Assembly (NCBI GenBank): GCA_034437515.1
Contig: DAOTTX010000245.1
Location: 2,753-66,752, forward strand
DNA from: Anaerolineae bacterium
Lineage (GTDB): Bacteria; Chloroflexota; Anaerolineae; Aggregatilineales; Phototrophicaceae
Length of the DNA stretch: 64,000 nucleotides
Direction of reading: 5' to 3'
Position numbers and translations under genes: made by a program. The first letter of the stretch is position 1, and every line of letters starts with the position of its first letter. This document shows, piece after piece, positions 2,138 through 22,079 of this stretch. Below the pieces are notes generated by a model. That model saw only the letters and a program-made list of their open reading frames with translations, did no database searches and was not told the DNA's origin.

Positions 2138-3817
2138 ATGGATTACGAACCGCAAAATCTGGATGACTGGTTCCCACGGGATGTCAACGGACGCCCGGTG
2201 ATGCTCGACGAAGACTCGCGGCTTGGGGTGGTGGTCGGTGGCTCGTTGAGTAAAGGGCTGCTGGTCAAGGTGGATTCGTCGCAGTCCATCGAAGACCTCG
2301 CCGTCGGGCGTTATGTGGTGGTGCATGGGCACAACAAACGCTTCTTCTGCATGGTGACCGACATCGAACTGAACAACACCAGCCCCGGCATCGAGGACGA
2401 CCCGCCGGATATGAGCGACCCGTTTATGCAGGCCGTCTACAGCGGCACGGTCGCCTATGGCACGGTCTACGTCGCGCCGATGTTGAGCATCGAGGCTGAC
2501 GGCACCCCGCGCCCGGTCAAAACCATCCCCAGCCACTTTACGAGGGTGGTCAACGCCTCCGAAGAGGACGTCAACGATGTGTTCGGGCAGGAAGACGGCA
2601 CCCACTTCAACGTCGGTGCGCCGCTGGAACTCGAACACACGCAGATTAATCTTGACCTCAAGCGTTTGGTGGAGCGTAGCGTCGGCGTTTTTGGCAAGTC
2701 CGGCACGGGCAAGAGCTTCCTGACTCGCGTGCTGCTCAGTGGCGTGATCGCTCGTGGGATCGGCGTCAATTTGATCTTCGATATGCACAATGACTACGGC
2801 TGGCAGATCACCAGCGAGAACGGTTATAACGTCAAAGGGTTGGCACAGTTGTTCCCCGGCAAGGTAACCATCATCACGCTTGACCCGGAATCGTCGCGGC
2901 GGCGTGATGCCAAGTTTGACTTTGCCGTCAAGCTGAGTTACAGCGACATCACGCCGGAAGACATCGTCATGTTGCGGGCGACCATGAACCTCTCCGACGC
3001 GATGGTTGATGCGGCCTACACGTTGAGCAAACGCTGGGGCGATAACTGGATCGGGCGACTCATCAAGGGGCGTATCGACGACATCGAAGACATCGTAGAG
3101 AACACCACCACCGCGTCCGGTACGCTGACCGCGCTGCAACGCCGCATGGAACGCTTCGAGCGGTGGGGCTTCCTCACCGAAGAACCCGCCGACGACAGCG
3201 TGACCGCCATCATCGACCTGCTGGTCAATCAAGAACGCAGCGTGGTGTTGGAATTCGGGCGCTACGGTAACTCGCTCGACGCCTATATGCTGGTGGCGAA
3301 TTATCTGACGCGCCGCATCCATGAGCAATACGTCGAGAAGATGGAGCGGTCGCTCGGTGACCAGTCGCTCGAACCACCACAGTTGATGATCGTCATCGAA
3401 GAAGCGCACAAGTTTCTTGATCCTGTGGTGGCCAGTCAGACCATTTTCGGCATCATCGCCCGTGAGCTACGCAAGTATAAAGTCACGCTGCTGGTGGTGG
3501 ATCAGCGTCCGAGCGCCATCGACGAAGAGGTGATGAGCCAGATCGGTACCCGCGTCACCGCGCTACTGGACAACGAGCGCGACATCCAGGCCGTGCTGAA
3601 CGGCGTCAGCGGGGCGGGCGGTCTGCGTGAGGTGCTGGCCCGGCTGGATACCCGCCAACAGGCCATCATCATGGGGCACGCGGTGCCGATGCCGGTCGTC
3701 GTGCGTACCCGCGCCTATGACGAGGACTTCTACACCTCCGTGATGCAATCCGCGACCCCGGTGAGCAAAAACGATGTGCGTAAAAGCCTGGGCAACAGCG
3801 GGCGCAAACGGATCTAA
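2138..3817 (+). CDS. HerA-like (DUF87/COG0433) P-loop ATPase
   Basis: HAS-barrel-like N-terminus (LGVVVGGSLSKGLLVKVD..VGRYVVVHG..FFCMVTDIEL). Walker A GVFGKSGTGKSFL, Walker B LMIVIEEAHKFL, then VVDQRPSAIDEEVMSQIGTRV. An in-frame stop at 2132-2134 fixes the start at 2138. Confidence 0.75.
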   Translation: MDYEPQNLDDWFPRDVNGRPVMLDEDSRLGVVVGGSLSKGLLVKVDSSQSIEDLAVGRYVVVHGHNKRFFCMVTDIELNNTSPGIEDDPPDMSDPFMQAVYSGTVAYGTVYVAPMLSIEADGTPRPVKTIPSHFTRVVNASEEDVNDVFGQEDGTHFNVGAPLELEHTQINLDLKRLVERSVGVFGKSGTGKSFLTRVLLSGVIARGIGVNLIFDMHNDYGWQITSENGYNVKGLAQLFPGKVTIITLDPESSRRRDAKFDFAVKLSYSDITPEDIVMLRATMNLSDAMVDAAYTLSKRWGDNWIGRLIKGRIDDIEDIVENTTTASGTLTALQRRMERFERWGFLTEEPADDSVTAIIDLLVNQERSVVLEFGRYGNSLDAYMLVANYLTRRIHEQYVEKMERSLGDQSLEPPQLMIVIEEAHKFLDPVVASQTIFGIIARELRKYKVTLLVVDQRPSAIDEEVMSQIGTRVTALLDNERDIQAVLNGVSGAGGLREVLARLDTRQQAIIMGHAVPMPVVVRTRAYDEDFYTSVMQSATPVSKNDVRKSLGNSGRKRI

Positions 3818-3933
3818 ATCTGCACTATAGTTACATTCTTGTGCCTATGTTTCAAAATAGTGCGTACTACACAAACCGCCCTTTGATACCGCATACTATA
3901 GATATACTTTTAGTCTACGAAGGAGCATATCTC

Positions 3934-4836
3934 ATGCGTGTATTGGTTTATGGTGGCACAGGCTCACAGGGTGGCGCGGTTGTACACAACTTGCTCAAGC
4001 AAGGTCACACCCCGGTCGTGCTGACTCGCAGCCCGGAGAAAATCGCAGAAATTGACGGGGCGGTCGCCGCTGTCGGTGATCTCGGCGATACTGACAGTCT
4101 GAAGACCGCACATGAAAACATCGACGCGGTATCGTTCATGATCCCGGCGTTTTTAGCAGACCCGATGCAAGCCCCGCAGTACGCCCGTAACGCCATCGAC
4201 GCAGCGAAAGACGCCGAGGTCGATCTGCTGGTTTACAACACCAGCGGTCCGGTCATCGAGGCGCGTATCGGCAACCCCATGTACGACATGCGCCTCGATA
4301 TAATCGACTACCTCAAACAGAGCGGCGTGCCGTATATCATCATCCAGCCGACGGCCTACATGGAAAATCTGCTCGGTCCGTGGACGCGCCCCATTGTAAT
4401 CGAGAAGGATGTGCTGCCCTACCCGGTCGAGGAAAATACGCCGTTGGGGTGGGTCGCCACCGACGACGTTGGTAAGTTGATCGTCGCGGCGCTGGAACGT
4501 CCCGAACTCGCCGGGCAACGCCTCATCGTCAGCGGCATCGAGAACGTGACCGGGCCGAAGCTGGCACAGCAATTCTCGCTCGGCCTCGGACGTGAAATCA
4601 CCTACTACTCCCAACCACTGGAAGAATTCGGCGCGGCGCTGGACGAAGCCTTCGGCCCTGGCGCGGGTGAGGGCGGTATTCAGGGGTATAAGTTCCAGCG
4701 AGAAAATGCCGATAAGATCGTGATGTGGACGGACATGCAGCCCGTGCTCGCCAAGCTACCCGTGCAGATGACCAGCATCGAGGACTGGGTGCGCCAGCAC
4801 GCTCCGGCCTTCAGCAAAGAGGCGCAGCCCTCATGA
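3934..4836 (+). CDS. NmrA-family NAD(P)-binding protein
   Basis: MRVLVYGGTGSQGGAVVHNLLKQGHTPVVLTRSPEK Rossmann GxxGxxG. AGGAG RBS at 3921-3925. The ORF-track 5' extension (3841) looks non-coding. Confidence 0.75.
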   Translation: MRVLVYGGTGSQGGAVVHNLLKQGHTPVVLTRSPEKIAEIDGAVAAVGDLGDTDSLKTAHENIDAVSFMIPAFLADPMQAPQYARNAIDAAKDAEVDLLVYNTSGPVIEARIGNPMYDMRLDIIDYLKQSGVPYIIIQPTAYMENLLGPWTRPIVIEKDVLPYPVEENTPLGWVATDDVGKLIVAALERPELAGQRLIVSGIENVTGPKLAQQFSLGLGREITYYSQPLEEFGAALDEAFGPGAGEGGIQGYKFQRENADKIVMWTDMQPVLAKLPVQMTSIEDWVRQHAPAFSKEAQPS

Positions 4837-5459
4837 GGATCGACATTTTCCACGATACGGCCTGCCCCTGGTGCCGCATCGGTAAGGCGCACCTGAAGCA
4901 AGCCCTCGCGGATTACCCGGAGCCGGTCGAGGTGCATTATCACACGTTCTTCTTGAACGGGAGCATCCCGCCGGAAGGCGCGGAATTCCGTGAGTACATG
5001 CTGGCGAAAGGCGGCGGGCAGGTTCCGCTGGAACAGTTCTTCGACGGGCCGCGCCGTGCCGGTGCGCGTGCCGGGATTACGTTCAACTTTGAGCAGATCG
5101 AGCACGCCCCTAATACGCTGGCCTCACACCGGTTGATCGCCATGACGCCGGAAGATCAACGTGAAGCCATGATCGACGCGGTGTATGCGGCGTACTTCGA
5201 GCATGGGCGCAACATCGGCGACCTCGATGTGCTGGCAGACATCGCCGCTGATGTTGGCCTCGACCGGGACGACATCAGCACCCGGTTGGGCACGGACGAA
5301 GCCGCCGCCGAAGTTATCGCCGAAGCACGTGAGGCTCAGCAAGGCGGCGTCAGCGGTGTGCCGTTCTTTATCTTTAACAATCGACTGGCGCTTTCCGGCG
5401 CACAACCGCCGGAGACCCTGCGCATGGCAATGGAACAAGCAGAGAAGGTGAAGGAATGA
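4833..5459 (+). CDS. DsbA-family (FrnE/HCCA-isomerase-like) thiol oxidoreductase
   Basis: MRIDIFHDTACPWCRIGKAHL carries a CPWC active site. ATGA start/stop overlap with the upstream NmrA gene. Confidence 0.75.
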   Translation: MRIDIFHDTACPWCRIGKAHLKQALADYPEPVEVHYHTFFLNGSIPPEGAEFREYMLAKGGGQVPLEQFFDGPRRAGARAGITFNFEQIEHAPNTLASHRLIAMTPEDQREAMIDAVYAAYFEHGRNIGDLDVLADIAADVGLDRDDISTRLGTDEAAAEVIAEAREAQQGGVSGVPFFIFNNRLALSGAQPPETLRMAMEQAEKVKE

Positions 5460-6085
5460 AAATCACAGTTTTCGGTGCCACCGGCAGAACGGGTATTCCA
5501 CTGGTGCGGCAAGCTCTTGACGCCGGGTATGAGGTGGTAGCGTTCGCCCGCACACCCTCCAAGTTGAACATCACACACGAGAATCTCTCGGTCGTGCAAG
5601 GGGACATCAAAGACCCCTCTGCCGTCGAGCAGGCCATCGTCGGTGCCGATGCGGTGCTGAGTGTGATCGGACATACCAAGAACTCCGCGAAGGATGTGCA
5701 GACGGTCGGTACACGCAACATCGTAAGTGCGATGGAAAAGCACGGTATCAAGCGCCTCATCAGCCTGACCGGGGCGGGTGTGAAAGACCCGAATGACAAG
5801 CCCGGCCTGATCGACCGTTTCATTGTGGTCTTACTCAAGCTGATCTCCGGCGATGTGCTGGAAGACGCCAAGAACCACGCGCAGGTCATCAAACAGAGCG
5901 ACCTCGAATGGACGATTGTCCGTGGCCCAATGCTGACCGAAGGCCCGCACACCGGGGACTATCGCGTCGGGTACGTCGGCGTGAACACCAGTCCGCGTGT
6001 CTCCCGCGCAGATGTGGCAGACTTCATGCTCACGCAGGTCGAAGACCAGACCTACCTCGGCAAAGCACCGATGGTCAGCGACTGA
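5456..6085 (+). CDS. NAD(P)H-binding atypical SDR (BVR-B/flavin-reductase-like)
   Basis: MKITVFGATGRTGIPLVRQALDAGYEVVAFARTPSKL. ATGA overlap with the DsbA-like gene. Confidence 0.7.
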   Translation: MKITVFGATGRTGIPLVRQALDAGYEVVAFARTPSKLNITHENLSVVQGDIKDPSAVEQAIVGADAVLSVIGHTKNSAKDVQTVGTRNIVSAMEKHGIKRLISLTGAGVKDPNDKPGLIDRFIVVLLKLISGDVLEDAKNHAQVIKQSDLEWTIVRGPMLTEGPHTGDYRVGYVGVNTSPRVSRADVADFMLTQVEDQTYLGKAPMVSD

Positions 6086-6120
6086 CTGACGAACGATGCA
6101 AACTCAACTTGTGCCTGCAA

Positions 6121-7188
6121 CTAACGCGGCGCGATGCACAACGTCCGCTGTCCCTCGATAGGTGCGGGGCAGCGGGTGGCGTTCGGGGAGATGCTGCTTT
6201 GTACGATAAATACATCTTCCCACGGGACGGTTTCGTCTTCCAGGGAGGCACGCCCCAATAATTGACACGGCTCCGGCACGGCGGTGCCTACTCCGCTGGC
6301 CTTCGTCACGTAGACGCACTGCCCCGGTGCCAGCACGTTCACCCGTCCGATTGTCGGTCGTGTGTCGTAGACGTCTATACCGGGGATGAGTGGCAGTACG
6401 GTCTCGTTTTCCCCCTCCAGGCGCATTGTCACCAAAGACATCAGGTAATCCTCACCGTTGTTCAAGACCAGCAACGTATCCGGTGTGTAGAGCATGTAGA
6501 CATGGTCGGTGTATTCTGGCGCGTCAGATGTGGACATATAAAACCGGCAGCGCAGCACCTCCCCGCCAGTGGAGGCCGGGTCGCAGCGTGTGCGTTCCAG
6601 CCCGTTCTGGATGATACGAAAAACACTATCGTTGGCGGGCGTCCAGAAGTGATCGCGGGCATCATTGGAGGTGAACCAGCGGGCGTAATCACCAGGGCAG
6701 CCCGATACACGTTTCGGGGCGTTCCGGTTGACCGACCATAACTGGACACATTCGCCAGCGCCCAGCGTTTGCCCCCAACGCAGCGCAAAAAAAACTTGAT
6801 CTGCGCCGGTAAACCATAAACTGTTCAGCGGCAGGGGAACCTCGCCCAGGTTGCGCAGTGTGATGTCGTTGTTATCGTAAACCAGTTCAGCGTTGAAGCG
6901 GCGTGGCACGGTCAGGTTGACCACCGTCGCGGCTTCGACCATTTCCCCGGCGGTGGTGGATTGCACCCGCACCACATCGCGCTCAATGCCGGATTCTGCC
7001 GTCCATTCGAGTTGAATCTCGCGCCCGAAGTTGATTTCAAGCTGATTAAGCCTCTCGATTGCATGGGGCAGCGTCATCCCGGTGACATCTGGCACGACGA
7101 TGCCTGTCGGTTCGGTTTGCTGCGCGATGCTCTCGCCGCCGAAAAACAGCAGACCGATCAAAATGAGTACATAGAATCGTGTTTGCAT
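6121..7188 (-). CDS. secreted PASTA-domain protein with duplicated Cys-containing C-terminal module
   Basis: Signal/TM MQTRFYVLILIGLLFFGGESIAQQ. PASTA-like IVVPDVTGMTLPHAIERLNQLEINFG..VVRVQSTTAGEMVEAATVVNLTVP. Start at internal ATG 7188. Confidence 0.55.
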   Translation of the reverse strand: MQTRFYVLILIGLLFFGGESIAQQTEPTGIVVPDVTGMTLPHAIERLNQLEINFGREIQLEWTAESGIERDVVRVQSTTAGEMVEAATVVNLTVPRRFNAELVYDNNDITLRNLGEVPLPLNSLWFTGADQVFFALRWGQTLGAGECVQLWSVNRNAPKRVSGCPGDYARWFTSNDARDHFWTPANDSVFRIIQNGLERTRCDPASTGGEVLRCRFYMSTSDAPEYTDHVYMLYTPDTLLVLNNGEDYLMSLVTMRLEGENETVLPLIPGIDVYDTRPTIGRVNVLAPGQCVYVTKASGVGTAVPEPCQLLGRASLEDETVPWEDVFIVQSSISPNATRCPAPIEGQRTLCIAPR

Positions 7189-7239
7189 GGTATCCAATAT
7201 GCTATAATCGCCTTTTCCACAACAGTCTATAAGAATATC

Positions 7240-8475
7240 ATGCAACCGATTACCCTGCTGCAAAATAAACGAATCGTTTTAGGCGTCACCGGCAGCATCG
7301 CCTGCTACAAGTCCATCGACCTCGCCAGCAAGCTCACCCAGGCCGGGGCATTGGTCGATGTGGTGATGACAGCGGCGGCGCGGCGCTTCGTCCAGCCGTT
7401 GACCTTCCAGGCGGTTACCGGACGCCCGGTGTACACCGATATGTGGGACGCCGACGATTCTGAGTTGTCTACGCACATCGCACACGTCGGCCTGGGCGAA
7501 GGCGCGGATCTGTTTGCGATCATCCCGGCGACCGCGCATACCATCGCGCGGCTGGCACAGGGTATGGCAGATGACCTCATTACCGTGACTGCGCTTGCCT
7601 CACGCTGCCCGTTGCTGATCGCCCCGGCGATGGATGGCGGCATGTACGAACATCCGGCGGTGCAGGCCAACCTGGGCACGCTAACCGAGCGCGGTGTGCT
7701 GGTGGTTGAGCCGGAAGAAGGCCGCTTCGCCTCCGGGTTGGTCGGTCTCGGTCGCCTACCGGAAACACCGACTCTGCTGGGTGCGATCCGTCGCGTGGTC
7801 GGGTGTGAGGCGGCGCTCTACGGCATGAAGGTCGTGGTCAGCGCCGGTGGGACGCGCGAACCGATTGACCCGGTGCGCTTCATCACCAACCGTTCCAGCG
7901 GCAAACAGGGCTACACCCTCGCACAGGCCGCGCTAGACGCCGGGGCGCGGGAGGTCGTGCTGGTCAGCGCGGCAGTCGGGCTGCCGGTGCCGGTCGGTGT
8001 GCGCTACATCGCTGTTGAAACCACCGCCGATATGCTGGAAGCCATCCAGACGCATAGCGGAGATGCCGACCTACTCATCATGGCGGCGGCGGTCGCAGAT
8101 TTTCGCCCGGTGCAAATCGCCGCGCAGAAGATCAAGAAGGGCGACGGTGGCTTAAATATCAAACTGATGCGCAACCCTGACATCCTGATGACGATTCGCG
8201 ATCAGCGTGAGCAGACCGGTTATCCGCGTATGGTGGTAGGCTTTGCGGCGGAAAGCGAGAACCTGGTGCAGAACGCCGCCGGTAAGCTGGAACGCAAAGG
8301 ACTCGACTTGTTGGTGGCAAACGACATCGCCGCGACCGATGCCGGGTTCGCTGTAGACACTAACCGGGTGATTATCCTCGATGCCGAAGGCGGGCAGCAG
8401 TCCTTTGACCTCGCCAGTAAGACCGTCATCGCAGAAGCAATCGTCGCCCGTGCTGCAACCTTATTCCGTGATTAA
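7240..8475 (+). CDS. coaBC: bifunctional phosphopantothenoylcysteine decarboxylase / phosphopantothenate-cysteine ligase
   Basis: N-terminal flavoprotein motif RIVLGVTGSIACYKS and CoaB motif FITNRSSGKQGY. About 410 aa from ATG 7240; the ORF-track extension to 6961 overlaps the divergent gene. Confidence 0.9.
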   Translation: MQPITLLQNKRIVLGVTGSIACYKSIDLASKLTQAGALVDVVMTAAARRFVQPLTFQAVTGRPVYTDMWDADDSELSTHIAHVGLGEGADLFAIIPATAHTIARLAQGMADDLITVTALASRCPLLIAPAMDGGMYEHPAVQANLGTLTERGVLVVEPEEGRFASGLVGLGRLPETPTLLGAIRRVVGCEAALYGMKVVVSAGGTREPIDPVRFITNRSSGKQGYTLAQAALDAGAREVVLVSAAVGLPVPVGVRYIAVETTADMLEAIQTHSGDADLLIMAAAVADFRPVQIAAQKIKKGDGGLNIKLMRNPDILMTIRDQREQTGYPRMVVGFAAESENLVQNAAGKLERKGLDLLVANDIAATDAGFAVDTNRVIILDAEGGQQSFDLASKTVIAEAIVARAATLFRD

Positions 8476-8494
8476 TTTGGGCAATCGTATATGG

Positions 8495-8857
8495 ATGAGT
8501 TTGGTATCATACTGACTTTGTTGAATGAAGAAAACGGATAGCTGGACCGCTCCCAAGCTCAAGTTTCAGTAGTTCACGAAAGTTGAGCAAATCTTGAAAA
8601 GTGGTCAAAGTTGGACAAAGTTAAGTCATTAAGGATTAATCATCAAACAACTTCGCCATTTGGTTTCACTACCGTACACTTTGGAGAAGTTGGTGGCAGT
8701 AGGATCACCTGGAAGCGTGGATGAGCTGCCAGCCAGTCTTCAACGGCCTGGGAGGTATGGAAGGACGCGCCATCCCAGACCAGGATAATCTCGCCCTACG
8801 GACAGGTGTCAGCGATCTGCTGTAACAATGCTAGCTCTATGTAGTTTCACTTTCTCA
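8495..8857 (-). pseudogene. IS630/Tc1-mariner-type DDE transposase, C-terminal relic
   Basis: Minus-strand translation gives YIELALLQQIADTCP*GEIILVWDGASFHTSQAVEDWLAAHPRFQVILLPPTSPK... This matches the IS630 DDE_3 pattern (ivlVlDNasfHksk.v.ewl..h.ri.l.fLPPYSPeLNP). It has an in-frame TAG, a later frame change, and no N-terminal two thirds. Confidence 0.55.
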
Positions 8858-13074: not shown

Positions 13075-16000
13075 TTATGGCAGGTACTGGAAGGTGGAAG
13101 GCGCGGATTGGACGATGCCCGAATTGCCCGGCCCCCAGGTCGCAACCGTCCAGGAGTAGACACCGGCAGGCAGGGTCACACCGGTCAGGTCGAGGCCGCA
13201 GTTGTTACCGGAAGTATCACAGCCGAGGTCTTCGGCGGTGTTCCAGATCGTGGCGACCGAGGCACCACCGCTGGTGCTCAGGTAGAACCCGTACCAAGTC
13301 GCGGCGGCATCACGGCTCCAGCGAGCGGTCACGCCATCCAGGGAGGAGACGATCGCGGTATCCACCGGGGTGTAAAGCGTCACAGCACCCGTTTCCGGCA
13401 CATCGATGGTGAAGTTCGCCGCATCGTAAGGATCACCGGCGGTTGCATCCCCGGGGACGGTGTACGGTGCCAGGCCGATGTCCTCAGACCAGGTGCGGGC
13501 ATACCAGGTGTAGCTGCCGCCATCCTGGAAGAAGCTCGGATCGACTTCTACATCACACCAGCCGTTGAACGGCTCACAGAAGGGATCGGTATCGGTGTTG
13601 AACCACTCGTTATAGATCGTACCGACGCCGTCCTGGTCAACACGGATGTTAATCCAGTCCACCGGGAAGTTTGAGAAGTTACTCCATGTAAAGTCAAAAG
13701 CGATGTTTGTCGAGGTGCAGACCTCGTCGATGTTCTCACCCTGGCAGATGCCGCCATTATTGTAGTCATCGAAGACGTAGAACAACTCAAAACCTTCGTT
13801 GGTCGGTGCGGGCACTGCCATCGTGAACTGGGTGTTGCCCGTCCACGGGCCGAAACCGCCATCGATGCTGTAGGTGTTCATCCAGATGGTGTAGTCACCG
13901 CTGGCGAAACGTTCCACCGCAGGCATGGAGCAGGAAGCGCCCACACCGCAGGTGCTGGCGGCTTCGTACCACTCGTCATAGGCCAGGGCACCGGTCGAGT
14001 CGAGCACGACCACGCGGTACCAATCTGGCATCTGGTTACCGGCCATCGGCTGGTTGATCTGGAAGCTCGGCGTTGCGGACGGTGAGTCAAGGTCGGTGGG
14101 GGCGAGGACTTCAGCACCCAGGATGTTGAAGATGAACGGGCCATCTTCGGTACCCAGCGCAGAACCGTTCCAGGAGTTCAGGTACCAGTTGACTTCGCTG
14201 TTCGTGCCAACCACACCGAGCTGTGTCCCCAGTTGGGTCTGGCAGGTGCCGCTTGCACAGATGTTCGTTGCCTGGAACCACTGGCTTGCGACTTGCGTGC
14301 CGCCGACTTCAGCGCGGATGTTGTACCAGACCGGGCCACCCACCGAAGCGACGCTGTCCTGGAAGGTGAAGAGCGGGCGGATGACCAGGCTTGCATCACC
14401 ATCCGGGGAGACCGCGTTGACGGTGAAATCACCGGAGCCTACCGGCCCGTCGCCAGTACCGTTGGTGCCGAATACTTCCCAGAAGTAATCCTCACCGATG
14501 GTGAGCGGGGCGGTCAGCGTGTAGCTCTCGTCAGTCACGCCGGAGGCGGTCTCGACGACGCTCTCGTCAGACGCATACACCGTGATGGTGTAGGTGTCCG
14601 CCAGGATGCCGTCCCAGGTGAAGGTCGGGCTGACCAGCGCGGTGCTGCCGACCGGGCCGAGCAATTGCACAGATGGCAAGACCGCGTTCGCCAGGTCAAG
14701 GCGCGGGTAGGTCTGGCCGTTGCCGGTGTATTCCGTCTCCTCGGATTCACCTACAGGCCAGGTTTGACCGTTATCAGTGATCGGTGTACCGGTCGCCTTG
14801 AGATGGTTGAGGATCTGATCGACGGTTGCCGTCGGGTCGGCCTCACGCATCACGGCGAAGGCACCCGCGACATGCGGTGCAGCCATCGACGTACCGGCGT
14901 AATATTCGTAGTTGGAGCCAAGCCAACCGGCGCGAGTATCATCACCCGTGCCCACGTTCATGGTGGACTGAATGAAGAAGCCAGGGGCCAGGATGTCGAG
15001 GAAATCCGCGCTGTTGGAGAAGAACGCGACTTCGTCGTCCAGGTCGATGCGATCATCGCTGGCGGCGACGGTCGTCGCACCCACGCTGATCATCCCCGGC
15101 AGGCAAGCCGGGCCACCCATCGAGTCTTTGAATGCGGCATTGCCGGATGAAGAGACGACAGCGATGTTTGCGCTGTTCAGCGCACGGAGGACACTCGGGT
15201 ACGGACCCGTCACACCACCGTAAGCTGCCAGACATGCCTGTTCGGAGAAGTACTGATCACCGCCCAGGCTCAGGTTGGCTGCGGCGATGTTTGTCATTAC
15301 GCCACCGCCGAACACACTCTGCTGGTAGAGATATTCCAGCGCCTTAATCTGGTCACTGCTGTAGCTGCGGACGCAACCATCAGCTTCCGCACCCGTAGTG
15401 CTGCAAATACCGATGCCAGGACGGAAGAAGCTAAACACGTTCAAGCCGATGATGTCGGCTTCGTAAGCCACACCCTGGAAGTCAACACCAACTTCGACAT
15501 CAGGTTCATAACCAGCGACCGTGCCGGCAACATGCGTGCCGTGACCACAAAGCTGTGAGTCAGCCGGGGTCGGCGCACAGACCGCAGCCGCGCCCGGGCC
15601 AACCTGAGATTCCTGACCGTTGGGGCACAGGGAGTCAACAAAGCCGGGGAAAATCGTGTTGAAGCAGGCTTCACGGATGTTTTTACCAGCCAATGCAGGA
15701 TGGTTGTAATCAACGCCTGTATCTAGCACGGCGACCGCGTAGCCGTCACCGGTGTAACCGGCGTCCCACGCAACCTGAGAACCGATGATCACGTTGGAGT
15801 CCAACATTTGGGGTTCTGAGAGGTGGTCAGGCGTAATGTTGGTGACCAGCACGTTGTTTTGCAGGGCTGCCGCACCAGCATCATCGACCCATAACGCCAT
15901 ATGCGGGATCGTCTGGTAACGGTGGACGTTGCTGACCGTCGCACCACTGTTGTTGAGTGCGTTCAAGACCGCGCCTTGCGCGTTCTGGATGGCACTACGT

Positions 16001-16245
16001 TGTTGGGTTACTGCGGAAGCGGAACTGAGTTCAGTTTCGACCTGGAAGGGGGTATCCAGCGTCACGATCACGGGGTAGAACTGTTGCCCACTGGTGTTGG
16101 TGAAGCTATAAAAGCCGTCACCCTCATCAGTGAAACCGGTGATGTCATCCTGTGCGGAGACCGCGCCGGTAAACAGCGCCAGGAGGCCGAGCATCAGCAT
16201 AACGCCAAAAACACGCCCCCAGGTGGAGAAAGAAGAGCTTTGCAT
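13075..16245 (-). CDS. secreted subtilisin-family (S8) serine protease with long repeat-containing C-terminal region
   Basis: Signal peptide. Catalytic triad motifs AVLDTGVD (Asp), CGHGTHVAG (His), GTSMAAPHVAGA (Ser). About 530-aa C-terminal extension. Confidence 0.9.
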   Translation of the reverse strand: MQSSSFSTWGRVFGVMLMLGLLALFTGAVSAQDDITGFTDEGDGFYSFTNTSGQQFYPVIVTLDTPFQVETELSSASAVTQQRSAIQNAQGAVLNALNNSGATVSNVHRYQTIPHMALWVDDAGAAALQNNVLVTNITPDHLSEPQMLDSNVIIGSQVAWDAGYTGDGYAVAVLDTGVDYNHPALAGKNIREACFNTIFPGFVDSLCPNGQESQVGPGAAAVCAPTPADSQLCGHGTHVAGTVAGYEPDVEVGVDFQGVAYEADIIGLNVFSFFRPGIGICSTTGAEADGCVRSYSSDQIKALEYLYQQSVFGGGVMTNIAAANLSLGGDQYFSEQACLAAYGGVTGPYPSVLRALNSANIAVVSSSGNAAFKDSMGGPACLPGMISVGATTVAASDDRIDLDDEVAFFSNSADFLDILAPGFFIQSTMNVGTGDDTRAGWLGSNYEYYAGTSMAAPHVAGAFAVMREADPTATVDQILNHLKATGTPITDNGQTWPVGESEETEYTGNGQTYPRLDLANAVLPSVQLLGPVGSTALVSPTFTWDGILADTYTITVYASDESVVETASGVTDESYTLTAPLTIGEDYFWEVFGTNGTGDGPVGSGDFTVNAVSPDGDASLVIRPLFTFQDSVASVGGPVWYNIRAEVGGTQVASQWFQATNICASGTCQTQLGTQLGVVGTNSEVNWYLNSWNGSALGTEDGPFIFNILGAEVLAPTDLDSPSATPSFQINQPMAGNQMPDWYRVVVLDSTGALAYDEWYEAASTCGVGASCSMPAVERFASGDYTIWMNTYSIDGGFGPWTGNTQFTMAVPAPTNEGFELFYVFDDYNNGGICQGENIDEVCTSTNIAFDFTWSNFSNFPVDWINIRVDQDGVGTIYNEWFNTDTDPFCEPFNGWCDVEVDPSFFQDGGSYTWYARTWSEDIGLAPYTVPGDATAGDPYDAANFTIDVPETGAVTLYTPVDTAIVSSLDGVTARWSRDAAATWYGFYLSTSGGASVATIWNTAEDLGCDTSGNNCGLDLTGVTLPAGVYSWTVATWGPGNSGIVQSAPSTFQYLP

Positions 16246-16556
16246 GTTTCAATCCTCTACACACATACAAAAATTAGAATATTTACCGCGCCACCTGTTG
16301 CAAGCCGTTAACGCTTTTGCAACCAGGATATAACACGATGGCACTTATTATAGCCAAATGTCTCTCTCATATACAACGTAAAAGCATGTCTTTTTCGTTT
16401 AGACTTCACAATTTTTTAACAAATTTTACAGTTGTGCTTACACTATCTTATTGTTAATAATAAGAATAATAAAAGAATAAACGCGCTTCCCGTAACGAAA
16501 TCCTCAGGTTTTACGTATACTGAATGATAGCAATAAACGCGACGAGGAAACTGAGA

Positions 16557-17267
16557 ATGTCAAATAACAACCTGTTAGACCAAATCCTCACGGTGATTAT
16601 CGGTTCGATCACCACCGTGACCAAAACCATCACCGAAGGCCGTAGCGTGCTAGAAGACTTCTTTTATGTACGGGTGAACGGTCTATCGTTCGTGGTTTTC
16701 GGCGCACGGCAGGTCGGCAAGACCACATTGATCGAGTGGTTACAGAAGCACATGCGTGACATCACCGACTTTGAGCCGGAGCCGACTGCCGCCGGTGGTG
16801 ACCCGGTCGATGACTTTACCTCCAAGATCGGCGACCAGCACATGAAGCTCAAGCCGGGGCGTGATGTCGGTGGGGAATACGCCATGTGGGAGACGGATTG
16901 GACGGCACTCTTTCGGGAAGCGCAACCACGCGGCATTATCTTCCTGCTAGACCATACCGATGTGCATCTGCAAAAGGACGCGCTCAACTTCGTCATGCAG
17001 ATGATCGACGACCAACCCGCCGCCGCCCAAAACCTGACCGCCCTCTACCTGATCGTCAACAAGTCCGACCTGTGGGGTGCGGAGATGTCGCTCGAAGACA
17101 TCACCGCCAACTATCGCAATGAGTGGAAGCGCCTGCAATCTCAAGCAGAGCGCGTGGGTTACAAGTTTGAGGCGTTTTCTGGCAGTTTGCACACCGGCTA
17201 CGGCATCAAGGCGGTGATGCAAAACTTCTTCAACGTCATCCGTCCCAAACCGCGCCAGGTTTCCTAG
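16557..17267 (+). CDS. small Ras-superfamily GTPase with Arf/Sar-type G motifs
   Basis: G1 VVFGARQVGKTTL, G3 DVGGE(YAMWETDW), G4 VNKSD, G5-like FSGSL. GAGGAAA RBS 6-7 nt before ATG 16557, preferred over ORF-track ATG 16524. Confidence 0.7.
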   Translation: MSNNNLLDQILTVIIGSITTVTKTITEGRSVLEDFFYVRVNGLSFVVFGARQVGKTTLIEWLQKHMRDITDFEPEPTAAGGDPVDDFTSKIGDQHMKLKPGRDVGGEYAMWETDWTALFREAQPRGIIFLLDHTDVHLQKDALNFVMQMIDDQPAAAQNLTALYLIVNKSDLWGAEMSLEDITANYRNEWKRLQSQAERVGYKFEAFSGSLHTGYGIKAVMQNFFNVIRPKPRQVS

Positions 17268-17894
17268 ATGGTGGGGCAACTTACCATCGACTATGTGTTT
17301 GAGGGGCACCGGCGCGGCTACAACTTTACCGGGCCGACCGCCCCCCACGATGATGAGACGGTCAAATCCGTGTGGCGTCACGCCATGCCGCGCGGTCAGG
17401 GATGGGCGGCCTATACCGGCGCACGTTCGATGAAAGGCTTCGCTCTGCCGTTTGACCAGTACGCCGTCGCCGAGGTGACTGTCACCGATAAAGAAGATGA
17501 AAACGGGCGGCGCGGCATCCGGCGGGCAGTAGTGGATGTGATGACGCCGGTGGTCTATGGGCATCATCTGCACTCACGGTTGGCGGGTTACCCGGCGGCG
17601 ACCCTTGCCATAGCACAGGCACACTACGAGACGGTCGCCCGCCGGATGCCCAAACTAAAAAAGGATACGCCGTTTGTGCTGGCCTATCCTTTTACGACCG
17701 TTCAAAATTGGTGGGTGGTCGAGGCGTTGATCTTCAAACTGCTGCTAACACCCGTCAAGCGGATGAAAAAATGGTCTGCGCTTACGTTTACCACGCTGGC
17801 CCTGGACTACCGCGAAGAATCGCAGATTGTCGCGCTACCGGCTGACCGCGCTGAGTCGATCAACGCGGTGCCGGTGCTAGCACTCGACGGTTAA
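17268..17894 (+). CDS. uncharacterised 208-aa protein translationally coupled to the GTPase
   Basis: ATG directly abuts the GTPase stop (TAGATG at 17265-17270). No family recognised. Confidence 0.6.
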   Translation: MVGQLTIDYVFEGHRRGYNFTGPTAPHDDETVKSVWRHAMPRGQGWAAYTGARSMKGFALPFDQYAVAEVTVTDKEDENGRRGIRRAVVDVMTPVVYGHHLHSRLAGYPAATLAIAQAHYETVARRMPKLKKDTPFVLAYPFTTVQNWWVVEALIFKLLLTPVKRMKKWSALTFTTLALDYREESQIVALPADRAESINAVPVLALDG

Positions 17895-18382
17895 ACCTCC
17901 TCTTCGGGGATTTCCTCGAAGCGTAGAATCTTGAAACGGGCGATGCCGTCCGGTGTTTTGACTTCGACCTTATCGCCAACGCGCTTGCCGAGCAATGCCT
18001 TCCCCACCGGGGATTTGATCGACACACCCCGCCGCCCGTGTGCGATTTCCCAACCGCCGAGCAGATCGAGCGGCAGTTCTTCTTTTTCGTCCAGGTCACG
18101 CACCACGACCCGATCACCGGGGGAAGCGACGTCGGGGTCGGGGTCTTCATCGACCACTTCGGCTTGTGCGAGGATGGCCCGCAACCGTAAAATGCGCTCG
18201 TCGAGATGGTTCTTCTCTACCAGAATCTCGTAGAAAGCGCCGTCTTCGTCGAGGTCGCCGTCTTCGCGTGCTGCCGCCATTTTCTGTGCCATCTCGCCTT
18301 CGGCTTTGTCCTGTAGGTTATTCAGTTCGCGTTGTAATTTATTGTAACCGGCACGAGTCATGACATATTCGTCGTTGGTCAT
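17891..18382 (-). CDS. greA: transcription elongation factor GreA
   Basis: 163 aa. N-terminal coiled coil (TRAGYNKLQRELNNLQ..) and C-terminal GreA domain (SIKSPVGKALLGKRVGDKVEVKTPDG). Confidence 0.85.
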   Translation of the reverse strand: MTNDEYVMTRAGYNKLQRELNNLQDKAEGEMAQKMAAAREDGDLDEDGAFYEILVEKNHLDERILRLRAILAQAEVVDEDPDPDVASPGDRVVVRDLDEKEELPLDLLGGWEIAHGRRGVSIKSPVGKALLGKRVGDKVEVKTPDGIARFKILRFEEIPEEEV

Positions 18383-18487: not shown

Positions 18488-18526
18488 ATAAAAATAAAAA
18501 GATGCAGCCTGAGTGACTGCATCTTT
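18488..18526 (-). terminator. intrinsic terminator of the LPF-repeat lipoprotein gene
   Basis: 9-bp stem aagatgcag/ctgcatctt (18499-18526), followed on the minus strand by TTTTTATTTT. Confidence 0.7.
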
Positions 18527-18549: not shown

Positions 18550-19737
18550 CTAGAAGCCTTCAGGGATCGTCACCGTCGGCTGCGTCGGGATCTGGTTATC
18601 ATCGGTGTACCAGGTCGGCAGACTAAGTTGGCTATTTGCTGGCGGGTTATTCGTGCCGGGTGGGGCATTGTTATCCCCTGGGCCACTGTTGCAATCCGGC
18701 AAGAACGGGGGACAGTTGGTACTGCCGTCGTCGCCGGGCGGGGAGCTGGTGTCAAACGGTGGGCCACCGCCGCCATTGTCCATAGGCGGGCTGTTGCTAT
18801 CGCCAAACGGCGATGCATCCGCGACCCGTTGCCCATCGTTTTCAACCTGTTCAGTGCCGACAAAATCCGCGAAGACGTAAGCCGTGCTGCCCTGGTAGCG
18901 GATGCTAGTCCATTGACCGCTGTTGCCTTCGACTTCGATCTCGGTGCCGGGTTCGATCTGACCGAGAATGTCACAGGTTGTCTCCGCACAGGAGAACACG
19001 CTCACCGGTTGACGACCGCCGATCACACTGACCGTGCTGGTGAAGCTACCGCCACCAAAGGGGGAGCCACCGCCGCTGTTATTTCCGAAAGGCAGGCCGC
19101 CGCCATCATTGCCGGGGGCGCTACCGCCGCTAAAGGGATTGCTGTTGTTGTTTACATCGAACGGCAAATCGCTATTAGGGCCGCTGTCGCTGCCACCGGA
19201 CGAACTGCCATCACCGAACGGTAAGCTGCTATCAGCTTCGGGGCTGCTGTTATTTGTATCAAAAGGAAGATCGCTGTTTGGGCTGCTGGCATCAGGATCT
19301 TCTTCGGCAGGGGCACCGGCGAAACCGGGGGGGGCATCTTCACCGGCGCTGTCGTTCCCTACCGGGTTAAATGGCAGCGAGCCATCAATGTCGGTATTAG
19401 CCTCAGCTTGCTCGAAGTTCGGGGCACTGGGGGCTTCCGCAATCGTGAACGGCATACTGTTTTCTGGCGCGCTGTTTTCTGGCGCGGTATCTGCTACCTC
19501 ACCGGGGTTGTTGTCGTTATTGGGTTGGGATGCTGCGGGTCTCGAACGCGGCGCAAGCGTTGGGATGCTGGCGCTGGTTTGCGGTGCGAGAGCAGCATTG
19601 TTGTTCGCACGCGCACGCAAAGTCGGAACTTCACGCGGTTCTTCGACCTGACTTGCCTCACCACCGCACGCCGCGATCACACAGGCGATCAGCAGCAAAA
19701 TGATTGCGGTGTTTATTCGTGATGATTTGTGTGGCAT
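18550..19737 (-). CDS. lipoprotein with low-complexity (S/D)LPF repeats and a C-terminal SH3b domain
   Basis: Lipobox MPHKSSRINTAIILLLIACVIAAC. Six or more LPF/PF motifs. SH3b-like VSVFSCAETTCDILGQIEPGTEIEVEGNSGQWTSIRYQGSTAYVFADFV. Confidence 0.65.
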   Translation of the reverse strand: MPHKSSRINTAIILLLIACVIAACGGEASQVEEPREVPTLRARANNNAALAPQTSASIPTLAPRSRPAASQPNNDNNPGEVADTAPENSAPENSMPFTIAEAPSAPNFEQAEANTDIDGSLPFNPVGNDSAGEDAPPGFAGAPAEEDPDASSPNSDLPFDTNNSSPEADSSLPFGDGSSSGGSDSGPNSDLPFDVNNNSNPFSGGSAPGNDGGGLPFGNNSGGGSPFGGGSFTSTVSVIGGRQPVSVFSCAETTCDILGQIEPGTEIEVEGNSGQWTSIRYQGSTAYVFADFVGTEQVENDGQRVADASPFGDSNSPPMDNGGGGPPFDTSSPPGDDGSTNCPPFLPDCNSGPGDNNAPPGTNNPPANSQLSLPTWYTDDNQIPTQPTVTIPEGF

Positions 19738-20011
19738 GTATATCCCTAGTCGTCTCGTGAACATCTTGCTTAGAAATATCGTAACATCATTCCGAAGCCG
19801 GAATATAGTACGAATCTCACAATTAACCCTTATTTTACAACTGTATAGATAACTGTGGGGAAAAATTCACAACTTTTTAGAATTCATTACATCAAACCAC
19901 CGCCGTTTCCGTGTATAATTTAAGAAATTGTTAAATACAGTTTAAATAAGTGACGAATTACTTAACATTGTGCCGAATTTCACAGGCATGAGATAGAGAG
20001 GATGACAACCT

Positions 20012-20522: not shown

Positions 20523-22079
20523 ATGGCTAACGTTATTGCAAATGATGGGCAAGCGTTCTTGTGGAGAGATATGGCAGCAACACAGGCAACAGAAGAAGTG
20601 GCTACGACGTATACCGCGTTCGCGCCGTTAGTGCTGGTCTTTCTGGGCGGCGTCAATCTGGTGTTGACCCAGTGGATACTGGTCAGAGAATTGACCACAA
20701 TGCTGCTGGGCAGCGAGTTGGTCATCCTGTTGGTGACGGTGGTCTATTTCGCCGGGCTTTCCATCGGATATAGCGTCTCCGGGTTTGTGCGGCATGGTTG
20801 GTTGCTGCCGCTGGGCGTGGTCGCGCTACTGCTGAATTTGACGCTCCCGGTGTGGCTGCGGCTGGCGGTCGCCGGGCTTGACGCGCTGGACGCCTACGGA
20901 CTGGCTTTTTTTGTGTTACCGGTGGCGGTGCCTTTTGTCGTCTCCGCGTTTTTCAGCATTTTTTTACCCCTGCTCGCGGATACAGGCGCGGCGCGGCTTT
21001 CCACATTGTATGCCGTCGAAGTCACCGGATCGGTCGTCGGCGTGCTGGTGCTGGTGGTCTTCGGGATGATCGGCTTGACGGCGGTGCTGGCGGTGTTTGC
21101 GGTGGTTCTGCTGGGGCTTTTGTGGACGTTGGGACTGCGGCGGGATGTGTTTGGGGTGTTGGTCGCGGTGGCGGTCGGCTGGTTGGTCGCGTTCCCGGTA
21201 GTGAACGACTGGAGCAACGCGGTATGGTTCCGGCAAATCCAACGGTTGCCCGCCGGGACGACCACCCTCTTCACCGGGTACAGCCCTTACCAGAAGGTCG
21301 ATGTGCTGGAAGCACCGGACGGCAATCGCTATCTTTTTCTGGATGGTCTGGAACACTTCGGCTCTTACGGCGGTCGCTGGCTCAACATTATGATGGGACG
21401 CATCCCTGCCTCGTTGATTCAACCGGAAAACGCGCTGGTGCTGGGTGCCGGCTCCATGCAGATGGAATTGATGATCGCCAATTATGCCGAGCATGTGACC
21501 ACCGTCGAGCTTGACCCGATGGTCGCCGAGGCCAGCCTGGAATACCTCACGGCGTACAATTTTATGGATCGGTTGGAAAACCGCACGATCATCATCGACG
21601 ATGCCAAACATCACATCGCCACGACGGACGCGACCTATGATCTGATCGCCACCGATTTACCGGGTGCGTTTATGATCCAGACCGGGGCGTTGTATACCGT
21701 ACCGGTTTACGAGAACATCACCGAACGGCTGAGGCCGGGTGGGGTTTTCGTGGTCAACCTCACCGGGGATTTTGAACCGGATGCTGTCGTGTCACGACGA
21801 ATCGCCGCCTCGCTGCTGGCTGTTTTCGATGAGGTGATGGTGGTGACGTCGCGCTCGGCGGGTTGGAGCTTCGCTTACGCCGGGGACGACCTGCCTTTCA
21901 CCACAGACGAGGTACGGCGGGCGATTGAGGTCGCCGGAGAAACGCAGTTCGGCATCTTTGAAACGGACGCCGTGCGTGCCATCGTCGGGGATGCGCAGCC
22001 GATCACACCGGATTCGCTCGATCTGGTGTTATATTCAAGTTGGGATCGCGTCTCGGATCGTATTGGAGTAGATGATTAA
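20523..22079 (+). CDS. membrane-fused spermidine/spermine synthase-like aminopropyltransferase
   Basis: About 230-aa polytopic N-terminus followed by a SpeE-like core: YQKVDVLE..RYLFLDG, VLGAGSMQ, VELDPMV, IIIDDAKHHI, YDLIATDLPG. Confidence 0.7.
   Translation: MANVIANDGQAFLWRDMAATQATEEVATTYTAFAPLVLVFLGGVNLVLTQWILVRELTTMLLGSELVILLVTVVYFAGLSIGYSVSGFVRHGWLLPLGVVALLLNLTLPVWLRLAVAGLDALDAYGLAFFVLPVAVPFVVSAFFSIFLPLLADTGAARLSTLYAVEVTGSVVGVLVLVVFGMIGLTAVLAVFAVVLLGLLWTLGLRRDVFGVLVAVAVGWLVAFPVVNDWSNAVWFRQIQRLPAGTTTLFTGYSPYQKVDVLEAPDGNRYLFLDGLEHFGSYGGRWLNIMMGRIPASLIQPENALVLGAGSMQMELMIANYAEHVTTVELDPMVAEASLEYLTAYNFMDRLENRTIIIDDAKHHIATTDATYDLIATDLPGAFMIQTGALYTVPVYENITERLRPGGVFVVNLTGDFEPDAVVSRRIAASLLAVFDEVMVVTSRSAGWSFAYAGDDLPFTTDEVRRAIEVAGETQFGIFETDAVRAIVGDAQPITPDSLDLVLYSSWDRVSDRIGVDD

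Follow-up and report, generated by a model that had tools for sequence, protein, structure and literature searches.

The window analysed here is a stretch of 64,000 nucleotides (nt) from an Anaerolineae bacterium (assembly GCA_034437515.1, contig DAOTTX010000245.1, positions 2,753 to 66,752 of the forward strand), and the subject of this work is a two-gene unit at window positions 16557–17894, in which the gene of an Arf-like GTPase of 236 amino acids (aa) is directly followed by the gene of a 208-aa partner protein. Both genes were found to be genuine, strongly conserved and co-located, and the pair is proposed to form a two-component GTPase switch, encountered so far almost only in the Chloroflexota class Anaerolineae. 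The features of the unit, in window coordinates, are the following:

16246–16556, no strand assigned: AT-rich, non-coding spacer that separates the GTPase gene from the divergently transcribed S8-peptidase gene
16544–16548, plus strand: Shine–Dalgarno-like GAGGA, 8 nt 5' of the GTPase ATG
16557–17267, plus strand: Arf-like GTPase gene, 236 aa, with start ATG at 16557 and stop TAG at 17265–17267
16701–16724, plus strand: P-loop (G1), G49-A-R51-Q-V-G-K-T56, with R51 equivalent to Ras Gly12
16863–16877, plus strand: G3/switch II, D103-V-G-G-E107, with Glu in place of the Arf catalytic Gln (DVGGQ)
17058–17069, plus strand: G4, N168-K-S-D171, guanine-specifying and aligned with NKQD of Arf1
17265–17270, plus strand: gene junction TAG|ATG, with a 0-nt spacer and GTPase and partner in one reading frame
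17268–17894, plus strand: partner gene, 208 aa, with start ATG at 17268 and stop TAA at 17892–17894
17268–17645, plus strand: predicted longin-order domain, partner residues 1–126, β1-β2-α1-β3-β4-β5-α2-α3
17496–17516, plus strand: signature loop D77-E-N-G80-R81-R-G83 between β4 and β5, holding the sole family-wide invariant arginine
17787–17804, plus strand: motif F174-T-T-L-A-L179 of the C-terminal lobe, mean top-residue frequency 0.98

An alternative, longer GTPase open reading frame (ORF) begins at ATG 16524; the start was placed at 16557 on account of the position of the GAGGA, the N-termini of the homologues, all of which begin M-S/T-N-I/L, and independent gene calls of 236 aa. Identical 236- and 208-aa proteins, named "hypothetical protein", were found in microbial-mat metagenome assemblies, and the independent callers agree on them. 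The original prediction, made from the letters of the window alone, had the 208-aa ORF starting right after the GTPase stop with no Shine–Dalgarno sequence of its own, which was borne out by the TAGATG junction and by the absence of GGAG, GAGG and AGGA from the 20 nt before the partner start. It had also placed overlapping stops between the partner gene and a convergent greA, and this holds as well: greA (17891–18382, minus strand; Pfam GreA_GreB_N and GreA_GreB matched) has its stop at 17891–17893, overlapping that of the partner by 2 nt. No terminator-like hairpin was found between the two stops (17891–17894), the sole match lying at 17937–17952, within greA, so that transcripts from both sides would collide.

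The linkage of the two genes was examined in 82 loci, and the GTPase gene was found directly 5' of the partner gene, on one strand, in 78 of these, or in 78 of the 79 informative ones; of the four exceptions, three lie at contig ends, and the fourth, locus L012, has space upstream of the partner gene yet no GTPase gene there. The same order is present at L001 and L002, and remote pairs, with partners 24–28% and GTPases 29–31% identical to the window proteins, are still adjacent. Clustering of all ORFs of 80 neighbourhoods returned no third conserved gene, and greA adjoins the pair nowhere else among the loci compared. The description of the locus as a self-contained two-gene unit is thus upheld, only the GTPase and the partner being conserved in the 80 genome loci, and co-location across genomes, which had been put forward as a check on the idea, was observed (78 of 82 loci, plus the distant pairs). 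An apparent neighbour cluster in 23 loci was rejected, being an antisense shadow ORF across the GTPase gene.

The spacing between the GTPase stop and the partner start, measured in 67 loci, was 0 nt or less in 15, 1–25 nt in 33, 26–100 nt in 7 and more than 100 nt in 12, some of the spacers reaching 1.3 kb. Among the 48 loci with a spacing of 25 nt or less, 36 lacked a Shine–Dalgarno-like tetramer and 12 possessed one. This spread indicates that tight coupling is common, not obligatory, and that the 0-nt junction is not a feature of the family. The translational coupling and fixed stoichiometry claimed for the pair are therefore plausible in the window, but do not extend to a family rule, given the spacers longer than 25 nt in 19 of the 67 loci. 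Readthrough of the TAG at 17265–17270 would yield a Rag-like GTPase-sandwich fusion of 445 residues; programmed readthrough of this kind was rejected because relative frame and spacing differ among 68 loci, and for the same reason the shared frame of the two ORFs is regarded as incidental.

Several observations concern the surroundings of the pair in individual relatives. A TIR gene stands beside the module twice: in L002 a response-regulator-TIR gene (4357–5142) lies immediately 5' of the GTPase gene, and in L012, within 3645–8642, a 1378-aa TIR-WD40 protein precedes the partner ORF (246 aa as listed). In L052, a 635-aa ORF of a WD40-repeat cluster lies between the GTPase match (5362–6057) and the partner (from 8001), so the pair tolerates a split of about 1.9 kb. 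In L086, a transposase and a phage-type gene are found close to a distant homologue. About 11 Aggregatilineales/Anaerolineae genomes carry a divergent cluster some 1–6 kb 5' of the pair on the opposite strand (L016, L018, L019, L022, L024, L026, L028, L029, L036, L049 and L052). This cluster encodes a 263-aa protein that is ParA-like by motifs, together with proteins of about 410 and 830 aa, guessed from position and sequence to be ParB-like and primase/Rep-like, respectively; it may represent a replicon origin/partition region or an integrated element.

Searches for homologues of the partner gave 320 sequences at E ≤ 1e-3; the 120 listed measure 203–230 aa and are named "hypothetical protein" wherever a product is described. 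For the partner, an exhaustive HMMER search over 1.84 billion representatives returned 77 clusters at the 50% level, which marks the family as small. The GTPase gave 371 homologues, the best 120 being, one identical sequence excepted, 59–76% identical to the window protein, under names as varied as "GTPase SAR1 family", "ADP-ribosylation factor-like", "SRP receptor subunit beta" and "hypothetical". The named homologues belong to Chloroflexota (Anaerolineae, Aggregatilineales, Phototrophicales) and come from metagenomes, a few bins being labelled otherwise; their occurrence in one bacterial class suggests vertical inheritance. No relatives were found on viral contigs (by scan) or on plasmids (by tblastn). 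Two remote partner homologues are extended at the C-terminus: P0312 (348 aa) has about 130 additional residues, and P0315 (273 aa) has a hydrophobic terminal stretch that could be a membrane anchor. A third match, P0275 (1682 aa, E 5e-16 to the partner), is a eukaryote-type vWA/EGF repeat protein whose homology was rejected, the match resting on seven copies of FTNLALDYVRE, which resemble FTTLALDYREE of the partner.

These distributions bear on the idea that the unit is a mobile defence or conflict module, for example a GTPase-based anti-phage system. Its compact two-gene form in variable neighbourhoods, the TIR-domain genes adjoining it in L002 and L012 and the transposase and phage-type gene near the distant homologue in L086 would suit such a role, as would weak PADLOC matches of the GTPase to PDC-S01 over 20–30 residues at the P-loop. 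Those matches (E 4e-4 to 1e-2) nevertheless span the P-loop only and the partner has no PADLOC match, while the relatives are absent from the viral contigs and plasmids scanned, their named members suggest vertical inheritance within one class, and the identity of 59–76% (best 120 of 371) with about 70 invariant positions is atypical of fast-evolving defence genes. A defence function is accordingly considered most improbable.

The assignment of the first protein as an Arf-like GTPase was supported at the level of its family. The window protein itself scored 20.5 bits against Pfam Arf (PF00025), under the gathering score of 22.3 bits, and the model was matched by 30 of 31 relatives at E ≤ 0.01, with a best E value of 1.3e-8. 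Some relatives weakly matched Gtr1_RagA (3 of 31) or SRPRB, and none of the 31 matched Pfam Ras. Searched against PDB sequences, the family profile reached Arf1 and Sar1 at E values of 0.5–1 only, which shows the family to be very divergent. Within it, conservation is high, with about 70 invariant positions in the 31 aligned relatives. These include G49, R51, Q52, G54 and K55 of the P-loop, the whole run R102-D-V-G-G-E-Y-A-M-W-E112 around G3, and N168, K169 and D171 of G4. The motifs GARQVGKT, DVGG and NKSD align with those of Arf1, and the differences from the Arf family lie in DVGGE instead of DVGGQ and in the N-terminus, where Arf proteins have a short amphipathic helix with a Gly2 for myristoylation and the present GTPase has no Gly2 and a longer extension.

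Two of the invariant residues, R51 and E107, deserve attention, as together they would constitute an unusual catalytic set beside nucleotide-binding motifs that appear intact. R51 persists in homologues of 28–30% identity (GYRATGKT, GYRGTGKT), and E107, where Arf1 has Q, is kept at the same distance (DVPGE, DVSGE). In Ras, substitutions at position 12 block the arginine finger of GTPase-activating proteins (GAPs), the Q61E variant reportedly hydrolyses GTP faster than the wild type, and in GBP1 and atlastin P-loop arginines work in cis. By analogy with these cases, the family may bring its own catalytic residues in R51 and E107.

The N-terminal extension of the GTPase (residues 1–40) is conserved, moderately hydrophobic and rich in β-branched residues, and exceeds that of Arf1 by about 25 residues. 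Its Kyte–Doolittle maximum over 19 residues is 1.2–1.57, under the 1.6 convention for transmembrane segments. The extension may associate with a membrane.

The partner was said at the outset to fall outside described families, and this was found to be so: neither Pfam (single sequence and 40 family members) nor NCBIfam, PADLOC or PDB sequences gave a match. Robl_LC7 was matched by none of the 40 members even at E ≤ 10, and the TagF model of Pfam likewise went unmatched. An AlphaFold2 model built on a 40-sequence alignment had a mean predicted local distance difference test (pLDDT) value of 95.7 and a predicted template modelling score (pTM) of 0.90. The DSSP elements of this model are strands at residues 3–10 and 17–20, a helix at 29–38, strands at 53–60, 64–72 and 85–92, and helices at 94–106 and 110–126, all at pLDDT above 90 and giving the order ββαβββαα; residues 127–208 form a small C-terminal α/β lobe. 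Each strand and helix that had been read from the letters alone agrees with the model. A longin domain is defined by the order ββαβββαα, in which a five-stranded sheet is covered by a single helix on one side and by a pair of helices on the other, and the roadblock domain has the permuted order αββαβββα (PMC3747258). The element order in the predicted model of the partner thus matches the longin definition, not the roadblock one. The likeness to longin, roadblock or DENN proteins expected in the original prediction therefore stands as regards the longin order of elements, but not as regards similarity to solved proteins, which was weak and generic.

When the partner model was compared with PDB structures by Foldseek, nothing was obtained at E < 1e-3. 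The top match was TagF (9t0n; E 2.3e-3, probability 0.99, 97 columns, template modelling (TM) score 0.25, 15% identity), and the list included the Lst4 longin (E 0.05, TM 0.29–0.37), FLCN/FNIP2 (E 0.03), GATOR1 (E 0.05), DENND10, and PAS and LOV domains, with TM scores of about 0.2–0.4 throughout. A comparison with viral structures gave nothing meaningful. The model supports a PAS/profilin/longin-like sandwich as the predicted fold class of the partner; it does not prove that the protein belongs to the longin superfamily, since the Foldseek similarity is weak, generic and mixed with PAS and TagF.

This mixed list raises the question of whether the two proteins merely serve one pathway without forming a complex, the partner being a co-expressed PAS- or profilin-like module that binds small molecules or proteins, or a TagF-like checkpoint of assembly. 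TagF is an accessory protein in type VI secretion, and that of Acinetobacter baylyi (9t0n) consists of two domains, α+β at the N-terminus and α/β after it (10.64898/2025.12.08.692957), an arrangement like that of the partner, and its N-terminal domain heads the list; PAS and LOV domains are scattered through it, and the longin fold is itself PAS-like (PMC3521125). TagF, however, binds Hcp and Fha and not a GTPase (10.64898/2025.12.08.692957). The partner family has no match to the TagF model and shows no typical PAS cofactor-binding motif, and no type VI secretion genes occur in the 80 neighbourhoods. Strict gene order and a tight junction, kept down to 24–31% identity, are moreover the usual signature of a physical pair. 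A joint pathway without a complex is, on this balance, judged quite improbable.

Conservation within the partner family is unevenly distributed over the modelled fold. High values were found for β2 (0.94) and for two loops, α1-β3 (0.85) and β4-β5 (0.80), and low values for α2 (0.45) and α3 (0.36). In the deep alignment, G17, W46, D77, G80, R81, L179 and P191 are invariant down to 22% identity; within the signature loop, D77, G80 and R81 never vary, and G83 hardly does, in homologues down to 22–30% identity. In known longin and roadblock complexes the GTPase sits on the face with the single helix, α1 (PMC3747258). The side of the partner that carries β2, the loop flanking α1 and the β4-β5 loop is the conserved one, with α2 and α3 variable, which was counted in favour of a partner that engages the GTPase.

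A cognate interacting pair, in which the partner acts on the nucleotide state of the GTPase in the manner of MglB and other longin/roadblock platforms, is the favoured reading, with a probability of roughly 0.55. It is drawn from a linkage that is strict and ancient, a junction that is usually tight, a neighbourhood in which no other gene is conserved, the longin order of the predicted fold and the way conservation is distributed. GTPase and partner would usually be translated from one mRNA, with only a few nucleotides between them, and the hydrophobic N-terminal extension may hold the GTPase at a membrane. The partner would bind the switch face of the GTPase through its conserved side, made up of β2, α1, the α1-β3 loop and the β4-β5 loop with D77, G80 and R81. 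It would then position or complement R51 and E107 of the GTPase, possibly with the help of R81 and D77, acting most likely as a GAP or co-GAP; activity as an exchange factor for guanine nucleotides (GEF) is the less favoured alternative. Physical binding, the binding face, GAP as against GEF action, membrane association and the cellular process controlled are the parts of this proposal that we infer. A more specific form of it, in which a genuine longin protein of the Anaerolineae with a mini DENN-like lobe is dedicated to an Arf-clade GTPase, and catalysis by the P-loop Arg and switch II Glu, an arrangement not described before, is completed or released by the D77/R81 loop, is put forward tentatively and may well not hold.

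A number of results weigh against the interacting pair. The longin, roadblock, SRX and folliculin models of Pfam matched none of the 40 partner family members; the longin similarity found by Foldseek (E ≥ 0.03, TM about 0.3) is below significance, and TagF and PAS, which are not GTPase regulators, match the partner equally well or better. In place of the GP motif known from GAP-type longins (PMC12290439), the partner has R-G-Y before β2. Linkage is loose in 12 of the 67 loci (spacing above 100 nt), and in L012 the partner has no adjacent GTPase gene. The bulky R51 would be expected, from the Gly12 mutants of Ras, to hinder an arginine finger supplied in trans, which weakens the model of R81 as the finger of a GAP. 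No natural fusion of GTPase and partner was present among up to 8000 candidates compared, the maximum coverage being 54%. The complex was modelled as a single concatenated chain, on an alignment with 4 GTPase homologues, as MAFFT, when given 6 or more GTPase sequences, wrongly aligned homologues of the partner with the GTPase half. This fused AlphaFold2 model had a pTM of 0.56 and a pLDDT of 35–70 in the GTPase half, and is uninformative on the interface.

Foldseek of the concatenated model returned IF2 first, then Rag/Gtr proteins (E 8e-5 to 1e-3, probability 0.85–0.99), which ranked above Arf1 (8e-3), Rac and Cdc42, with TM scores of 0.2–0.3; this ranking agrees with a composition of GTPase plus sandwich, the GTPase half of the model being of low confidence. 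A mirror-tree correlation of r = 0.48, reached by none of 999 permutations, was not used for interaction because shared phylogeny explains it.

The pair is proposed to work like MglA/MglB, SRβ/SRX or the longin GAPs, and it departs from each of these in defining features. With the bacterial Ras-like GTPase MglA and MglB, its roadblock-domain GAP, it shares an arrangement in which the gene of a small GTPase adjoins that of a small protein with an α/β sandwich of longin/roadblock class. MglA supplies its own arginine and glutamine, which MglB merely positions (PMC4316618, PMC3747258), and R51 and E107 of the present GTPase would fit intrinsic catalysis in the style of MglA. On the other hand, MglA lacks the G3 aspartate (TxxGQ; PMC4316618), whereas D103 is present and invariant here, the intrinsic arginine sits here in the P-loop (R51) and the GTPase is Arf-like by Pfam. 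The partner, unlike MglB, has no Robl_LC7 match, follows the longin order in its model and carries an extra C-terminal lobe.

Another parallel in architecture is offered by SRβ and the SRX domain of SRα, which likewise join an Arf-clade GTPase with a hydrophobic N-terminus to a single longin-fold partner, in that case one that carries the GTPase on its α1 face (PMC3747258); weak SRPRB matches and the source annotations of GTPase relatives point the same way. In a different function, the partner would be an effector or anchor that binds the GTP form, as SRX does SRβ, relays the signal or recruits a further component, and alters neither hydrolysis nor exchange. Some relatives are labelled SRβ by the Joint Genome Institute, the hydrophobic N-terminus of the GTPase resembles the anchor of SRβ, and with R51 and E107 as candidate catalytic residues the GTPase may need no GAP. 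SRX is, in addition, a monomeric longin whose top face is occupied by the GTPase (PMC3747258). Yet SRβ and SRX are eukaryote-specific parts of the signal recognition particle (SRP) receptor, and SRX is only one domain within a larger protein. The Pfam SRX model is unmatched here, no SRP-related genes are found in the neighbourhood, no conserved third gene lies nearby that could be the downstream target, and the loop with the invariant D77, G80 and R81 resembles an element of catalysis or of switch contact more than it does a passive docking site. A purely effector or anchor role, though the main rival, is therefore thought unlikely, and a partner that acts on the nucleotide state of the GTPase remains preferred.

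A further comparison is with the longin GAPs FLCN-FNIP, GATOR1 NPRL2-NPRL3 and C9orf72-SMCR8 and their Asgard relatives, proteins in which a longin domain is followed by an α/β lobe (PMC12290439). Their clients are Arf or Rag GTPases (PMC12290439), and they recur in the weak Foldseek lists of the partner. GAP-type longins have a GP motif that closes the β1-β2 loop, immediately before β2, and an arginine finger; a motif is conserved where β2 begins, and 60–80 residues further on an arginine is conserved (PMC12290439). At the corresponding site the partner reads E-G-H-x-R-G-Y-N, in which G17 is invariant and followed by Y and not P; the invariant G-Y before β2 and an invariant arginine 64 residues on make a similar layout, not an identical one. 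The longin GAPs differ from the present case in being heterodimers of two large longin-DENN proteins with a GP motif, while here a single 208-aa protein carries R-G-Y; the Foldseek matches to them are not significant, and the group is not known from bacteria. The Rag/Gtr proteins show the domain order GTPase then α/β sandwich, which is the gene order here, but the two are separate genes here and the Rag roadblock serves dimerisation, not regulation of its own G domain (PMC3747258).

Upstream of the unit, the spacer at 16246–16556 had been described as AT-rich, and its guanine-plus-cytosine (GC) fraction was indeed 0.33–0.41 against about 0.58 in the flanking coding sequence. It is presumed to be the promoter region of both the S8-peptidase and the GTPase genes. 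Three overlapping sigma-70-like matches occur at 16405–16454; the four promoter-like matches found in the spacer, compared with 2.3 ± 1.3 expected from shuffled sequence, are not above chance. A near-palindrome of 20 nt, TCTTATTGTT/AATAATAAGA, at 16446–16465 overlaps promoter-like hexamers and could be an operator or a chance product of AT-rich sequence, and AATAAACGCG recurs at 16476 and 16532. No Rfam family was matched by the AT-rich leader or by the whole two-gene unit. The divergent gene on the other side of the spacer (13075–16245, minus strand) encodes an S8 subtilase of 1056 aa that is kept upstream in the nearest relatives only (L001/L004 and L003), and owing to this restriction it is regarded as local synteny outside the module. 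Beyond greA, the gene at 18550–19764 (minus strand) encodes a protein of 404 aa and low complexity in which Ser, Pro, Gly and Asn are abundant; its N-terminus is hydrophobic, SDLPF/SLPF motifs recur in it, and it contains a single bacterial SH3_3 domain. A terminator-like hairpin follows the gene at 18526–18498. At 20523–22079 (plus strand), a protein of 518 aa joins a spermidine/spermine synthase-like domain to an N-terminal half that is long, hydrophobic and apparently multi-pass.

The prokaryotic small-GTPase classes given in two sources are MglA, Rup1, Rup2, RasL, ArfL, ArfR and Rag/Gtr (PMC4316618; 10.1101/2024.02.28.582541), and a Chloroflexota Arf-like family with a partner of the present kind is absent from both of these sources. 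Full-text literature searches for a pairing of an Arf-like GTPase with a longin-order protein also found no description. A 2013 review stated that prokaryotes possess roadblock and no longin domains (PMC3747258), and longin GAP-like proteins and Arf relatives have since been placed in Asgard archaea (PMC12290439; 10.1101/2024.02.28.582541).

Eukaryotic membrane traffic, like accounts of its origin, gives a central place to small GTPases paired with a longin/roadblock platform, and a conserved bacterial pair of an Arf-like GTPase and a longin-order protein would add a bacterial data point to the debate on that origin, whether it stems from ancient diversity, convergence or gene transfer. Such a pair would also offer a minimal two-protein system for the mechanics of longins and GTPases. 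If the more specific, tentative form of the proposal is true, with a genuine longin protein, the pair would be a bacterial counterpart of the SRX-SRβ and FLCN/SMCR8-type modules so far reported from eukaryotes and Asgard archaea. The arginine at the position of Ras Gly12, combined with a glutamate at that of Gln61, could reveal another mode of GTP hydrolysis. For the annotation of these genomes, two families of "hypothetical protein", each exceeding 300 members, could receive names and be connected with each other.

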